This document shows, one piece after another, positions 26,673 to 40,161 of a stretch of DNA of 64,000 nt (positions are counted from its first letter, which is position 1; the number at the start of each line of letters is the position of its first letter). This stretch comes from Verrucomicrobiota bacterium (GTDB taxonomy: Bacteria; Verrucomicrobiota; Kiritimatiellia; CAIQIC01; JAGNIJ01), in the NCBI GenBank assembly GCA_043803015.1, contig JAZDKK010000026.1:20707-84706 (forward strand), written 5' to 3'. Made by a program: the position numbers and the translations under genes. The notes below the pieces were generated by a model that worked only from the letters and a program-made list of their open reading frames with translations, was not told the DNA's origin and did no database searches.

Positions 26673-27926
26673 ATGGAAGCCTTCACTTACAAGAACGGCC
26701 AGCTGCACGCGGAGGGCGTCGGGGTCGCTGAACTCGCCGCCCGCCACGGCACCCCTCTGTTCATCTACAGCCGCACGCACCTCGAGGAGCAGTACCGCGC
26801 CCTGGCCGCCGCGATGAAGGCGGTCGAGCCGCTCCTCTGCTTCTCCGTGAAGGTCAATACCAACGCGGCGGTGATCAGGACGTTCGCCGACCTCGGGGCC
26901 GGCGCCGACGTGGTTTCCGGCGGCGAGCTGTTCCGCGCGCGCCGGGCCGGCGTGCCCGCGGACCGGATCGTCTTCGCCGGCGTGGGCAAAACCGTCGAGG
27001 AGATCGAGTACGCCCTGAAAGAGGGCATCCTGTTTTTCACCGTCGAGTCCGAGGCCGAGCTGGAGCGGATCGCCGAATGCGCGGTGCGCCTGCGCCAGAC
27101 GGCGCGCGTGGCCCTGCGGGTCAACCCGGACGTGGACCCGAAGACCCACCGCTACATCAGCACGGGAAAGAAGGAGAACAAGTTCGGACTGGACCTCGTG
27201 CGGGCCGAGCGCGCGTACGAGCAGGCCTCGCGGCTCTCGAACCTCGAGATCGTCGGCCTGCACATGCACATCGGCTCGCAGATCCTTTCGCCGGAGCCGT
27301 ACGCGGAATCGCTGGAGAAGGTCGCCGGCCTGTGCCAGCAGCTCAAGCGGCGGTTCCCGTCGTTCAAGTACATCGACTTCGGCGGCGGACTGGGCATCCA
27401 GTACAAATACGAAGAGCGTCCGCTGGACCCGCGCCGTTTCGCGGACGTGGTCGTGCCGCACCTGCAGGAGTTCGGCCTCTCCGTGGTCATGGAGCCGGGC
27501 CGCTTCCTCGCCGGCAACGCCGGCATCCTCGTGGCGCGCGTGCAGTACGTCAAAGAGAACTCCGTCAAACGGTTTGTCATCGTGGACGCCGCGATGAACG
27601 ACCTGATCCGCCCGCCGCTCTACCAGGCGCACCACGAGATCGTGCCGGTCCGGGAGACGTCCGGGACCGTCCTCGGCGACGTGGTGGGCCCGGTGTGCGA
27701 GTCCGCCGATTTTCTCGCCGTCGACCGCGAGCTCCCGCGCGTGCAGGCGGGCGACCTCCTGGCCGTTCGCGGCGCGGGCGCGTACGCGTTCGCGATGGCC
27801 TCGAACTACAACAGCCGCGGCCGCGCGGCCGAGGTCATGGTCTGGGGCGCGAAGAGCGCGCTGATCCGCGAGCGCGAGACCCGCGAAGACCTCGTCCGCG
27901 GCGAGAAGACGCCCAAGTGGAAGTAA
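26673..27926 (+). CDS. lysA: Diaminopimelate decarboxylase
   Basis: FSVKVNTN, DVVSGGE, LRVNP, KFG, HMHIGSQ, DFGGG, EPGR, GPVCESAD, GAYAFAMASNYN. Confidence 0.97.
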   Translation: MEAFTYKNGQLHAEGVGVAELAARHGTPLFIYSRTHLEEQYRALAAAMKAVEPLLCFSVKVNTNAAVIRTFADLGAGADVVSGGELFRARRAGVPADRIVFAGVGKTVEEIEYALKEGILFFTVESEAELERIAECAVRLRQTARVALRVNPDVDPKTHRYISTGKKENKFGLDLVRAERAYEQASRLSNLEIVGLHMHIGSQILSPEPYAESLEKVAGLCQQLKRRFPSFKYIDFGGGLGIQYKYEERPLDPRRFADVVVPHLQEFGLSVVMEPGRFLAGNAGILVARVQYVKENSVKRFVIVDAAMNDLIRPPLYQAHHEIVPVRETSGTVLGDVVGPVCESADFLAVDRELPRVQAGDLLAVRGAGAYAFAMASNYNSRGRAAEVMVWGAKSALIRERETREDLVRGEKTPKWK

Positions 27927-28019
27927 CTCGCGCCGGCGCGACGCGCGTTTTTCCAATCCGCCTGCCTGCCAGCCCCGCGGCCCGGGGGCAGGCTGGCCCC
28001 GCACGCTGTGCGTGGGGCG

Positions 28020-28102
28020 GGCAGGTCCTTGGAGAAATGGCTCGTATCTTTTTCCAATCCTTGAAAAAATGGCTCCTAGATTTTCCAATGTCTGGAAAAA
28101 AA
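28020..28102. repeat. TTCCAA-N3-TTGGAA-type palindromes, 31-bp phased
   Basis: Half-site TTGGAG at 28029; TTCCAA-TCC-TTGAAA at 28052; TTCCAA-TGT-CTGGAA at 28083. Confidence 0.85.
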
Positions 28103-28116
28103 GGCCGAGGTGCCAC

Positions 28117-28983
28117 ATGTTCGAAGGTGCTTATACAGCGATAGTTACGCCGTTCAACAAGGACGGCAGCGTGGATTTCGCTAAACTCCGCGACCTGATC
28201 GAATTCCAGGTCAAGAACGGGATCGACGGCATCGTGCCGGTCGGAACGACCGGCGAGTCGCCGACGCTCGACTACGAGGAGCACGAGAAAGTCGTCGAGG
28301 TTTCGGTCCAGGCGACGCGGAGAAGGATGAAAGTCATCGCCGGCACGGGCGCCAATTCGACCCGCGAGGCGCTGGAGCTGACCCGGCACGCGATCGGGGC
28401 CGGGGCGGACGCGACCCTCCAGGTCACCCCGTACTACAACAAGCCGAACCAGGCCGGCCTGATCAAGCACTTCACGGCCGTGGCGGACCTCGGTCTGCCG
28501 ACGGTGCTCTACAACATCCCCGGCCGGACCGGCCGCGAGATCGATGTGGCCACGGTGGTCGAGCTGTCGAAGCACCCGAAGATCGTCGCGCTCAAAGAGG
28601 CGGGCGGGAGCGTGGACCGCGTGAGCCAGATCGTAACCCGCTGCAAGATCGAGGTGTTGTCCGGCGACGACTCGCTCACCCTGCCGATGATGGCGGTGGG
28701 CGCGCTCGGCGTCATCAGCGTGGTTTCCAACATCGCGCCCAAAGCGGTCGCGGACCTGGTGCACGCCGCCCCGAAAGGCGACTGGAAGCAGGCGCAGGCG
28801 CTGCACCAGAAATACTACCGGCTGTTTACGGACCTCTTCATCGACACCAACCCCATCCCGGTCAAGGCGGCGATGGCGATGATGGGCCTGTGCGAAGAGG
28901 TGTATCGTCTGCCGCTCTGCGAGATGGCGGCGAAAGGCAGAGAGACGGTGAGAGAAACACTCAAGGCGCTTGGGCTGATTTGA
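28117..28983 (+). CDS. dapA: 4-hydroxy-tetrahydrodipicolinate synthase
   Basis: TAIVTPF, GTTGES, AGTGANST, LYNIPGRT, LKEA, NPIPVK. Confidence 0.97.
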   Translation: MFEGAYTAIVTPFNKDGSVDFAKLRDLIEFQVKNGIDGIVPVGTTGESPTLDYEEHEKVVEVSVQATRRRMKVIAGTGANSTREALELTRHAIGAGADATLQVTPYYNKPNQAGLIKHFTAVADLGLPTVLYNIPGRTGREIDVATVVELSKHPKIVALKEAGGSVDRVSQIVTRCKIEVLSGDDSLTLPMMAVGALGVISVVSNIAPKAVADLVHAAPKGDWKQAQALHQKYYRLFTDLFIDTNPIPVKAAMAMMGLCEEVYRLPLCEMAAKGRETVRETLKALGLI

Positions 28984-29409
28984 TTGCCGATTGCCGATGT
29001 CCGATTGCCGAATGAAGAGATGAACAAGAACGACCTGAAGGAGCGAACCAAGAGCTTCGGACTTCGTTGCGTCAATCTGACGAATGCCCTGCCGAAGACT
29101 GCGGCCGGCCACGTGCTGGGCAACCAGCTGCTCAGGGCCGGGACCTCCGTCGGGGCCAACTACCGATCGGCCTGCAGAAGCAGGTCAACGGCAGAGTTCA
29201 TCGCGAAGATCGGCGTGGTGGAAGAAGAGGCAGATGAATGCTGCTACTGGCTGGAGATAGTCCGCGACGCCAAGCTGATGAAAGCGGCCCTTCTTCAATC
29301 TTTGTTGCAGGAAGCGGATGAGCTGACTGCTATAATGGCAGCGTCTCGTAAATCGGCGGCAAGGAATCGTCGTCGCTGATTCGGAAATCGGCATTCGGAA
29401 ATCGACAAT
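28983..29409. mobile_element. Putative cassette: four-helix-bundle gene between inverted heptamer arrays
   Basis: (ATTGCCG)n at 28983-29013 against the reverse complement of 29379-29409 (25/31); spans exactly dapA stop to dapB ATG. Mobility is inferred. Confidence 0.6.
29020..29379 (+). CDS. Four-helix-bundle protein (bAvd/23S-IVP-like)
   Basis: DLKERTKSF, QLLRAGTSVGANYR, S.AEFIAK, EEADECCYWLE, EADEL.AI; lower GC. Confidence 0.92.
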   Translation: MNKNDLKERTKSFGLRCVNLTNALPKTAAGHVLGNQLLRAGTSVGANYRSACRSRSTAEFIAKIGVVEEEADECCYWLEIVRDAKLMKAALLQSLLQEADELTAIMAASRKSAARNRRR

Positions 29410-30219
29410 ATGAAAAAAGTGGTGGTCATAGGTGCCGCTGGCCGGATGGGGCGAACCCTCGTTCATTGCCTGGAAGCGGAAACGGTGCCGGGCCTCGAGC
29501 TGGCGGCCGCCGTAGACATCTGGGACTGCCCGGAGCGCGGCCAGGATGCAGGGATCGTGGCGGGCTGCGGCGAGATGGGCGTGAAGATCTCGTCGGACCT
29601 CGCGGAGGTCGGCGCGGCGTGCGACGTCGTGATCGACTTCAGCGCGCACCAGGGGACCGCCGGCAACGCGCAGCGGGTGGCCGAGTGGCGCAAGCCGCTG
29701 GTCATCGGAACGACAGGGATGACCCCCGAGGAGAAAAAGGTCATCGGCGAGGCCGCGGCGACCATCGCGATCGTGATGTCGCCGAACATGAGCCTCGGCG
29801 TGAACCTCCTGTTCTCGCTGGTTGAGAAAGCGGCCGGCGCGCTGAAGGGCAAGGGCTACGACGTCGAAATCATCGAGCGGCACCATCGCCGCAAGAAGGA
29901 TTCGCCCAGCGGAACAGCGCTGGCGCTCGGCGAGGCGGCGGCCAGGGGGCTCGAGTGGAAGCTCGACCAGGTGGCGATCCACGGCCGGCACGGCCTGCAC
30001 GGCGAGCGGCCCGCCCAGCAGATCGGCTTTCACGCCGTCCGCGGCGGCGACATCGTGGGCGACCACACCGTGCTGTTTGCCGCCGAAGGCGAGTGCATCG
30101 AGCTCTCCCACCGGGCGACGAGCCGCGAGGCGTTCGCGCTCGGCGCGCTGCGCGCCGCGGCGTGGTCGATCGGCCGCGCCCCGGGCCTGTACACCATGCG
30201 GGACGTGCTCGGGTTGTAG
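29410..30219 (+). CDS. dapB: 4-hydroxy-tetrahydrodipicolinate reductase
   Basis: GAAGRMG, VIDFS, VIGTTG, SPNMSLGVN, IERHHRRKKDSPSGTA, RGGDIVGDH. Confidence 0.97.
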   Translation: MKKVVVIGAAGRMGRTLVHCLEAETVPGLELAAAVDIWDCPERGQDAGIVAGCGEMGVKISSDLAEVGAACDVVIDFSAHQGTAGNAQRVAEWRKPLVIGTTGMTPEEKKVIGEAAATIAIVMSPNMSLGVNLLFSLVEKAAGALKGKGYDVEIIERHHRRKKDSPSGTALALGEAAARGLEWKLDQVAIHGRHGLHGERPAQQIGFHAVRGGDIVGDHTVLFAAEGECIELSHRATSREAFALGALRAAAWSIGRAPGLYTMRDVLGL

Positions 30220-39514: not shown

Positions 39515-40078
39515 ATGGCCCCCGCACCCGCGAACGGACTCCGTCCCCACCACATCCGCGACGTCCTGTTCACCGCCGACGACATCGCGCGACGTGTGGA
39601 CAAGCTGGTGCAGGAGATGGCTGCCTATTGCCGCGGCGAGAACTTCGCGATGATCGGAATCCTCCGCGGCAGCTTCATGTTCCTGGCCGACCTCGTGCGC
39701 GACCTGTACCACCACGACGTGCACCCGCGGATCGACTTCATGACGCTCGAAAGCTACGGCTCGGGCACCGTGTCGTCCGGTACCGTCCGGATCACAAAGG
39801 ATATCGGCCTCGATGTCCGCGGCGCGACGGTTCTTCTCGTGGACGACATCCTTGATACCGGCCGCACGCTGGCCTTTGCGTGCCAGCACCTGCGCGACCA
39901 GGGCGCGAAAACGGTGAAAACCTGCGCCCTGCTGGACAAACCCGCGCGGCGCGCGGCGCCGTTCCGGGCCGATTACGTGGGGTTTCCGGTCGAAGACCAC
40001 TTTGTGGTGGGTTACGGGCTGGACTACGACGCACGGTACCGCGAACTGCCGTACATCGCGAAGGTGACGTTTCTCTGA
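39515..40078 (+). CDS. hpt: Hypoxanthine phosphoribosyltransferase
   Basis: ILRGSFMFLADL, ESYG, VLLVDDILDTGRTL, LLDK, FVVGYGLD...YRELPYI. Confidence 0.96.
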   Translation: MAPAPANGLRPHHIRDVLFTADDIARRVDKLVQEMAAYCRGENFAMIGILRGSFMFLADLVRDLYHHDVHPRIDFMTLESYGSGTVSSGTVRITKDIGLDVRGATVLLVDDILDTGRTLAFACQHLRDQGAKTVKTCALLDKPARRAAPFRADYVGFPVEDHFVVGYGLDYDARYRELPYIAKVTFL

Positions 40079-40079
40079 T

Positions 40080-40161
40080 CAGTGTTCGGTGTTCAGTGTT
40101 CGGTGTTCGGTCTCGGAAGCAATGCTATCCACCGAATACTGAAAACCGAACACTGAACACT
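40080..40161. repeat. Inverted heptamer-array hairpin (RGTGTTC)4...(GAACACY)n, likely a bidirectional terminator
   Basis: CAGTGTTCGGTGTTCAGTGTTCGGTGTTCGG against CCGAATACTGAAAACCGAACACTGAACACT, between convergent stop codons. Confidence 0.8.

Follow-up and report, generated by a model that had tools for sequence, protein, structure and literature searches.

The window analysed here is a stretch of 64,000 nucleotides from a Verrucomicrobiota metagenome-assembled genome (MAG; assembly GCA_043803015.1, contig JAZDKK010000026.1, positions 20,707 to 84,706), which we call G000 (2.15 Mb in 84 contigs, 66% complete). The element under study is a cassette of 427 bp (28983-29409) between the genes dapA and dapB, which begins on the final base of the dapA stop codon, ends on the base preceding the dapB start codon and consists of one small gene (the cargo) between two inverted arrays of tandem heptamers (the arms). 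The features of the locus are as follows.

28117..28983, + strand: dapA (4-hydroxy-tetrahydrodipicolinate synthase), upstream host gene; TIGR00674, 368.5 bits (cut-off 206)
28983..29013, + strand: left arm, four tandem heptamers ATTGCCG ATTGCCG ATGTCCG ATTGCCG followed by AAT; repeat search
29014..29019, + strand: purine-rich GAAGAG directly 5' of the cargo ATG, outside the arm; read from the sequence
29020..29379, + strand: cargo gene, encoding a four-helix-bundle protein of 119 aa, PF05635/TIGR02436; profile scores and predicted fold
29379..29409, + strand: right arm, ATT followed by CGGAAAT CGGCATT CGGAAAT CGACAAT, inverted relative to the left arm; repeat search
29410..30219, + strand: dapB (4-hydroxy-tetrahydrodipicolinate reductase), downstream host gene; TIGR00036, 279.6 bits (cut-off 122)

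The first base of the left arm (ATTGCCGATTGCCGATGTCCGATTGCCGAAT) is the A of the dapA stop codon TGA (28981-28983), and the sequence after dapA reads ...CTG ATT TGA/TTGCCG ATTGCCG ATGTCCG ATTGCCG AAT GAAGAG ATG..., in which GAAGAG is a possible weak ribosome-binding site. The right arm (ATTCGGAAATCGGCATTCGGAAATCGACAAT) begins on the A of the cargo TGA and its last base directly precedes the dapB ATG at 29410 (...CGC TGA/TTCGGAAATCGGCATTCGGAAATCGACAAT/ATG AAA). The arms are 31 nt each, lie 365 nt apart and are complementary at 25 of 31 positions (81%); period-7 self-matches number 19/24 in the left and 17/24 in the right arm. Their inverted-repeat score of 16.0 was reached by none of 5000 shuffles (mean 4.8, maximum 10.5) and by none of 655 window segment pairs at equal spacing (maximum 11), and a chance origin of the inverted arms was rejected on these grounds. 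The cargo open reading frame (ORF) has a GC content of 58.1%, compared to 63.8% in dapA, 69.8% in dapB and 66.5% in the window, and a GC content at third codon positions (GC3) of 70%, compared to 87% in dapA and 90% in dapB. The initial annotation, made from the letters alone, had placed the arrays on exactly these bases with the same complementarity and had called the cargo lower in GC; the repeat search and the composition bear out both statements. Neither a sigma-70-like promoter nor an intrinsic terminator was found in a scan of 27900-29500, and an Rfam scan of the cassette returned no rRNA and no other RNA family. An insertion sequence or miniature inverted-repeat transposable element was considered and rejected, the cassette being without transposase and without target-site duplication; no direct repeat is visible in the bases flanking the arms (..CTGATTTG/A.. 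and ..T/ATGAAA).

The cargo ORF scores 81.9 bits with TIGR02436 (cut-off 24) and 63.4 bits with PF05635 (cut-off 33.8); in the profile matches PF05635 stood alone, with no Y1/HUH transposase, and a sequence match in the Protein Data Bank (PDB) was found with 2RLD (1.6e-15). An AlphaFold2 monomer model (32 homologues, predicted local distance difference test 95.7) comprises helices 3-23, 28-52, 57-83 and 89-118. Foldseek matched this model to 2RLD (BT_0352; template modelling score, TM, 0.86), to 2GSC (Xcc0516; TM 0.80) and, with TM 0.76, to Avd, the accessory protein of diversity-generating retroelements (DGRs), both alone (4DWL) and in the DGR ribonucleoprotein (8UB7). The PDB entries 2RLD and 2GSC contain five chains each; the cargo was modelled as a monomer. 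The PF05635 family is characterized by the motif GxxRxxxSxxxNxxE (PMC3936711), of which the cargo keeps R39, S43 and N47, (near-)invariant in its subfamily, and differs at both ends (Q36 for the first G, and S50, A in most of the subfamily, for the last E). PF05635 genes are found in cas loci (PMC3936711), and the family is homologous to Avd (PMC10053308). The TIGR02436 score and the match with Avd agree with the kinship to 23S rRNA intervening-sequence (IVS) proteins and Avd that the initial annotation gave as established for this family. Because Avd acts within an RNA-protein complex, it is plausible that the four-helix-bundle fold of the cargo binds nucleic acid.

We searched for dapB in 60 relatives and read the dapA/dapB junctions (families are labelled f1-f5 and genera g2-g4; loci L039-L138 are cassettes of relatives from the order). 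Filled junctions occur in four lineages of two families, i.e., G000, G006 (g3), G007 (g4) and G010 (family f2); the orthologous cargos of the latter three share 61-63% protein identity with that of G000, and the metagenome relative P0007 likewise has an orthologous cassette between dapA and dapB. The arms consist of ATTTCCA/ATTGCCA with TGGAAAT/TGGCATT in G006, AATTCCG with CGGAATT in G007 and ATTGCCG with CGGCAAT in G010. Three junctions are stubs: G002, the dapA of which is 95% identical in nucleotide sequence to that of G006, has a spacer of 43 nt with remnants of both arms (TTTCCCATTG ... TTGGAGATTGGCC), G014 has heptamers of the right arm only, and G013 has remnants of ATTGGCC type. Empty junctions measure 13 nt in G009 and 16 nt in G003 and are overlapping (TGATG) in G004, and in the outgroup family f4 dapA and dapB usually overlap as ATGA or GTGA. 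In the tree of DapA plus DapB, the filled and stub states all fall within one clade (Shimodaira-Hasegawa-like approximate likelihood ratio test 99) that comprises the families f1, f2 and f5. The simplest history, as read from these alleles, would be a single insertion into an ancestrally overlapping junction before three verrucomicrobial families diverged, and vertical descent with several losses thereafter, the gene staying intact in at least four lineages and otherwise being reduced to arm stubs or lost. That this junction exists among relatives in filled, remnant and empty form fits the transposase-less insertion unit of the initial annotation: the gene is not universal at this site, and arms are present. 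We regard it as very probable that the cassette is an inserted, IVS-like four-helix-bundle unit.

At the dapA/dapB junctions of genus g2 (L022 in G005, L024 in G001 and L026 in G008), other palindromic elements take the place of the cassette, i.e., an inverted array with a period of 9 nt (CCACAGAGG GCGCAGAGG ACACGGAGG / CCTCCGTGA CCTCCGTGT CCTCTGTGG) and, in G008 (L026), an unrelated GC-rich palindrome.

The MAG contains 7 PF05635 genes above the cut-off (dapA/dapB cargo included), and every one of them is flanked by tandem 7-nt arrays that are mutually reverse complementary and fill almost the entire spacer. The heptamer is different in each (GTGTTCA, GGGAATG, GAGATCT, ATTGCCG, TTTTCGA, CTCGGCC and CCAACGN), and all 7 genes lie in sense orientation between co-directional genes, at the following sites.

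integrase/waaA (Kdo transferase), sense
hypothetical/dprA, sense
purL/purQ, sense
moxR/DUF58, sense
cytidylyltransferase (HldE-like)/epimerase (HldD-like), sense
ftsW/ahcY, sense (identified by reading alone)
dapA/dapB, the cassette under study, sense

The expectation that paralogues elsewhere would also be bracketed by inverted heptamers was thus confirmed throughout the assembled genome. The wider sample comprised 107 genes (100 PF05635 genes from the 60 relatives and the 7 of the own genome), and in 62 of them the inverted-repeat score lay above the 99th percentile of a control in which left and right flanks were taken from different cassettes; nearly all of the remaining ones show heptamer arrays by eye, and about 90% of the 100 sampled cassettes share the build, with other heptamers. 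The GC content of the cargo is below that of the flanks in 108 of 110 cassettes. Among 84 armed cassettes (order and own genome), the 5' arm contains more G than C in 72 and more C than G in 6, the dapA/dapB subfamily belonging to the exceptions. At the 13 distinct sites where the neighbours were identified by Pfam or called (7 in the own genome, 6 elsewhere), orientation was always sense; in the 100 cassettes of the relatives (350-nt flanks, open-frame and codon-usage models) it was mostly ambiguous, with confident calls of 29 sense and 4 antisense.

A search of a database of 5.8 billion protein sequences for wider homologues showed that the closest proteins to the cargo (60-69% identity) belong to several phyla. 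The members of this subfamily found elsewhere all point the same way as the two co-directional genes that flank them.

?/lysA, sense
another dapA/dapB, sense
hsdR/hsdM, sense
Phd-PIN/hypothetical (Desulfohalobiaceae), sense
MqnA-like/AP_endonuc_2 (Bacteroidota), sense
adaptor (membrane fusion protein, MFP) of a resistance-nodulation-division (RND) system/RND pump (Pyrinomonadaceae), sense

The arms of the Bacteroidota copy consist of ATTGCCG/ATTTCCA/ATTGCCA, with exact mirrored complements in the opposite arm, those of the Acidobacteriota copy of TTTTCGA/TTTTTGA/TTTGCGA, with a perfectly mirrored right arm, and in the Desulfohalobiaceae copy a 21-nt sequence (CGGAAATCGGCATTCGGAAAT) identical to part of the right arm of G000 lies beside a gene whose product is 65% identical. 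The heptamer type of the subfamily, ATT(G/T)(C/T/G)(C/G)(G/A), is retained across phyla and insertion sites. Identities to the G000 cassette compare as follows.

protein: 60-65%
fourfold-degenerate sites: 20-38%, about random
arms, same subfamily: 67-96%
arms, other subfamilies, at the best offset: mean 47%, maximum 64%

Because the arms remain 67-96% identical while fourfold-degenerate sites are about random, the arm sequence itself, beyond its complementarity, is to judge by this comparison under purifying selection; conservation across phyla so far above neutral expectation predicts a specific contact between protein and nucleic acid. The link between arm type and protein extends beyond the subfamily. 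Among 81 armed cassettes at non-homologous sites, arm similarity was 0.67 for pairs with at least 70% protein identity and 0.47 for pairs without detectable similarity, a correlation that was matched by 0 of 500 permutations, and many cassette pairs with 75-89% protein identity sit in unrelated flanks. Arrays matching ATTKBSR x3 were found in all 9 genomes that contain a subfamily gene (at least 50% identity) and in 10 of 52 that do not (p = 5e-6; 8/8 versus 5/11 when only the closer families are considered, p = 0.018), and a reversed-pattern control gave 1 match versus 152.

The two arms of each copy covary unit by unit. For this test, nine subfamily cassettes were aligned in one register with four units per arm (the register was chosen by hand and somewhat favours pairing): 89.7% of the cells formed standard pairs compared to 76.3% after shuffling, and both sides had changed in 19 of 28 pairs compared to a shuffled mean of 8.8 (0 of 500 shuffles equalled either value), with pairing of 17-52% in slid registers. 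Variant units are mirrored in the opposite arm, e.g., AATGCCA with TGGCATT in G006 and ATTTTTG with CAAAAAT in the Acidobacteriota copy.

In the mechanism that we propose, the cassette would be transcribed from the dapA promoter within a dapA-cargo-dapB mRNA, in which the arms would pair over about 31 bp, bringing the dapA stop and the dapB start together in a stem that might serve as a substrate of RNase III, as in rRNA IVSs. Translation would be relayed from dapA to the cargo and on to dapB, the arms being melted by terminating ribosomes (the left arm by the ribosome ending dapA, the right arm by the one ending the cargo), which would expose the next start. The product, an Avd-like pentamer in this model, would recognize heptamers of its own type, whether in RNA or in DNA, which would account for the conservation of the arm sequence beyond its complementarity. 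That the product reads its own heptamer is probable; co-transcription, RNA stem, relay translation and heptamer reading taken together are at best slightly favoured. A role at the transcript level is what the sense orientation at 13 of 13 sites, the lack of promoter and terminator at the site, the G-rich polarity of the 5' arm in the class, the precedent of Coxiella (see below), the fold and the presence of RNase III in relatives point to: the minimum-free-energy RNA fold of 28960-29440 includes the terminal stem, and RNase III (rnc) was found in 24 of 24 good-quality relatives.

The spacing between the genes bears on the translational part. In G000, the 30 nt from the cargo stop to the dapB ATG are entirely right arm. 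The cargo stop overlaps the dapB start in the P0007 cassette (ATGA, L139:1875-1878) and the hsdM start in the hsdR/hsdM cassette (L142:1878-1884), and in G007 the sole canonical in-frame dapB start is a TTG that overlaps the cargo stop (probably TTGA, L013 at about 1465-1470), and therefore the right arm would be translated in that genome. Where the two genes overlap in this way, the right arm falls within coding sequence. These overlapping stops in related cassettes suggest a relay from dapA through the cargo to dapB rather than a bypass of the cargo. The initial annotation had proposed that the termini pair in the mRNA, loop out the cargo and thereby restore the coupling of dapA and dapB. 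Since the more distant relatives show the ATGA overlap, an ancestral coupling of the two genes is plausible; the looping-out itself fares less well because the cargo-stop overlaps point to a relay. Pairing in the mRNA is in keeping with the strong covariation of the arms, although this covariation fits correction at the DNA level equally well, as set out below.

Several observations weigh against the proposed mechanism. On the sense strand there is no excess of G:U over A:C mismatches (97 versus 83 in 81 cassettes, p = 0.33), and one-sided G-U cells are rare (5 versus 34 double changes), which is unusual for a selected RNA stem. If replication switches template from one arm of a quasipalindrome to the other, covariation of the same kind results, and correction from arm to arm at the DNA level explains the covariation equally well as RNA pairing. 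The fold of 28960-29440 is overall not unusually stable (z = -1.75), and the stem of G000, with 6 mismatches in 31 and no perfect run beyond 6 bp, is imperfect and may be a poor RNase III substrate; RNase III itself was not found in the source MAG, which is 66% complete. The association and covariation of protein and heptamer are confounded by the joint descent of gene and arms, and the association is necessary but insufficient for a protein that reads the heptamer. With regard to insertion, neither a target-site duplication nor recent movement is visible at the dapA/dapB locus, we know of no enzyme that inserts such cassettes, and a single clade of the four dapA/dapB cargos is borderline in the tree of this 119-aa protein (not rejected, approximately unbiased test p = 0.075), which leaves repeated insertion at the dapA/dapB site as an alternative history that the sequences may accommodate.

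The main rival is a DNA-level element comparable to the REP doublets forming hairpins (REPINs) and REP-associated tyrosine transposases (RAYTs) of repetitive extragenic palindromic (REP) sequences. According to this explanation, which we consider unlikely, the arms act as DNA hairpins or cruciforms, the protein binds them and promotes the copying of gene-less hairpins, and it is template switching during replication, rather than selection for an RNA stem, that maintains the complementarity of the arms. A period-7 scan of the MAG revealed about 105 arrays with 27 close inverted pairs, mostly gene-less hairpins of few types (ATGGTTG-like 25, GTTATTC-like 17, GTGTTCA-like 16), as such copying would leave. 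One gene-less hairpin (G000:C79:150-230, in the region 146-235, with a loop of 28 nt) is of the ATTGCCG type of the cassette itself: it reads ATTTGCG ATTTCCG ATTTTCG ... CGGCAAT CGGAAAT CGAAAAT, abuts a TGA, is followed by GGAGAA (a ribosome-binding site) and ATG, and resembles the decayed dapA/dapB stub of G002. G010, G017 and G021 each have 31-37 ATTKBSR x3 matches for 2-3 cognate subfamily genes (37 matches for 2 genes in G010), from which it appears that gene-less arrays of this type have multiplied in these genomes. The lack of a G:U excess and the mainly transversion-type double changes also suit a DNA-level process, and inverted GGGAATC pairs are abundant in Xanthomonas (PMC4692102). 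As in REP/REPIN-RAYT systems, a single gene lies between inverted short repeats that are also dispersed as gene-less hairpins, with several repeat families in one genome. The cassettes differ from these systems in that the cargo, a small bundle of helices, has neither an HUH/Y1 nuclease motif nor any other known catalytic motif, the repeats are tandem heptamers instead of a single palindrome, and orientation in operons is strictly sense. The cassette carries no nuclease, recombinase or reverse transcriptase (no RVT_1 match in the assembled genome), and a mechanism confined to DNA has no need for sense orientation at 13 of 13 sites or for the G-rich polarity of the 5' arm (72 versus 6). Furthermore, the commonest hairpin types (ATGGTTG, GTTATTC) have no cognate gene in the 66%-complete assembly, and the dapA/dapB cassette has stayed fixed at one site since before the split of the three families.

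Less probable still is a domesticated, immobile regulatory module, in which the protein would be an RNA- or DNA-binding regulator of the host operon and of other heptamer loci, and the arms would be its operators, through which the expression or stability of dapA relative to dapB would be set. The long vertical inheritance with an intact, strongly constrained ORF (60-65% protein identity, with synonymous sites at random level), the conservation of the arm sequence across phyla and the overlap of the arms of some copies with translation signals, or even coding sequence, are what such a module would show. However, the subfamily occurs in unrelated operons (restriction-modification, efflux, toxin-antitoxin, menaquinone) with no shared function to regulate, it is frequently lost, leaving decayed stubs in close relatives, and a GC content below that of the flanks, as in 108 of 110 cassettes, is in line with turnover or a foreign origin. 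That the cargo is the Avd accessory protein of a DGR which lies between dapA and dapB by chance is extremely improbable and was rejected, because, despite the similarity in fold to 4DWL and 8UB7 (TM 0.76) and the rank of PF05635 as the commonest family in DGR neighbourhoods (PMC10053308), a search with RVT_1 found no reverse transcriptase adjoining the gene or elsewhere in the assembled genome, a template/variable repeat pair is absent, housekeeping genes flank the cargo and each of the seven paralogues stands alone in an operon junction. Avd and the cargo share the fold, Avd being a basic pentamer that works in a ribonucleoprotein, yet sequence identity is about 13% and the cargo is a stand-alone gene with heptamer arms, without reverse transcriptase or template/variable repeats.

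We return to the proposed mechanism and lean, by a small measure, towards regarding the cassette as the operon-resident counterpart of ORF-bearing 23S rRNA IVSs, within a heptamer-armed class. ORF-bearing 23S rRNA IVSs are reported from Coxiella burnetii and Leptospira (Warrier et al. 2016; Ralph and McClelland 1993). In Coxiella burnetii, the IVS in helix 45 of the 23S rRNA carries an ORF of the same family, GACAGAT heptamers and a terminal stem of 28 bp (PMC4990558), which is cut by RNase III at the first repeat (PMC4990558, Warrier et al. 2016). The cassette matches this architecture, as the initial annotation had supposed when it likened the unit to a 23S IVS placed in an mRNA: in both, the loop encodes an S23p/PF05635 protein, the terminal inverted repeats could pair over about 28-31 bp, the 5' end carries tandem heptamers, a transposase is lacking, the length is about 430 nt and the orientation is sense within a transcribed host gene or operon. 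The differences are that the host is an mRNA operon junction and not an rRNA helix (25 or 45), that heptamers build both arms in the cassette, that the cassette ORF is intact and strongly constrained, whereas the Coxiella ORF is decaying and probably untranslated, and that RNase III excision, demonstrated for the IVS, is a prediction for the cassette.

Heptamer repeats are also known from intergenic regions, e.g., GGGAATC in Xanthomonas and GGGGAYT in Nostoc (Rehm et al. 2015, PMC4692102) and elements of four heptamers in Geobacter metallireducens (PMC2700814). Like the arms, they are 7-nt arrays of about four units, often in convergent intergenic pairs, transcribed and conserved in position between related species; the papers name no gene family and read the repeats as G-quadruplex or regulatory elements, whereas the arrays described here bracket a PF05635 gene and their heptamer type follows the protein subfamily. 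Hence, 23S IVSs with S23p ORFs and heptamers (PMC4990558) and intergenic heptamer repeats with inverted pairs (PMC4692102, PMC2700814) are already in print. Our literature search found no paper on an operon-resident cassette or on a heptamer type linked to a PF05635 subfamily outside rRNA, and what is new is an IVS-type element residing in an mRNA. This locus contributes a series of dapA/dapB alleles from three families, a comparison between arms and synonymous sites, a negative G:U test and the co-occurrence test.

A broader generalization, which we offer tentatively and consider less likely than the kinship with IVSs, would be that PF05635 pentamers are sequence-specific readers of tandem heptamers, each subfamily with its own type, that gene-bearing cassettes are the master copies of the gene-less hairpins, and that rRNA IVSs are the rRNA-resident subset. 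If true, a large orphan protein family would gain a function, as would the excess of heptamers in bacteria that has long lacked an explanation, and the generalization would unite 23S IVSs, the S23p/Avd-like orphan family and the over-representation of tandem heptamers in intergenic DNA in one testable system. The dapA/dapB locus is a good test bed, with essential, ancestrally coupled host genes and with filled, stub and empty alleles among relatives.

Some further observations were made at these and other loci. A gene-less hairpin lies in the window at 40079-40161 between convergent ORFs (TCAGTGT TCGGTGT ... / ...CCGAACA CTGAACA); it begins on the A of the TGA of the ORF at 39515-40078 and shares its heptamer type with the arms of the cassette G000:C37:3586-3903. 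In the purL/purQ cassette, a third heptamer array (GATCTCAGATGTCAGATCTCAGATC) lies within the four-helix-bundle ORF (G000:C82:22006-22032), and in G000:C37:13067-14115 inverted AGGTKGT-type arrays, 1 kb apart, surround an ORF of 310 aa that resembles an NAD(P)-binding epimerase, with no four-helix-bundle gene. A dense cluster of arrays surrounds one subfamily gene in G017 (C55:53279-55861). Upstream of the cassette, the spacer between lysA and dapA (27927-28116) contains three copies of TTTTCCAAT and two of GAAA(A)ATGGCTC. In relatives of family f3 (L014-L016, L020), the stand-alone dapB has a 5' palindrome, TTTTCCAAGG(G)CTTGGAAAA, then 17 nt and TACACT, an arrangement that looks like a promoter with an operator-like palindrome.

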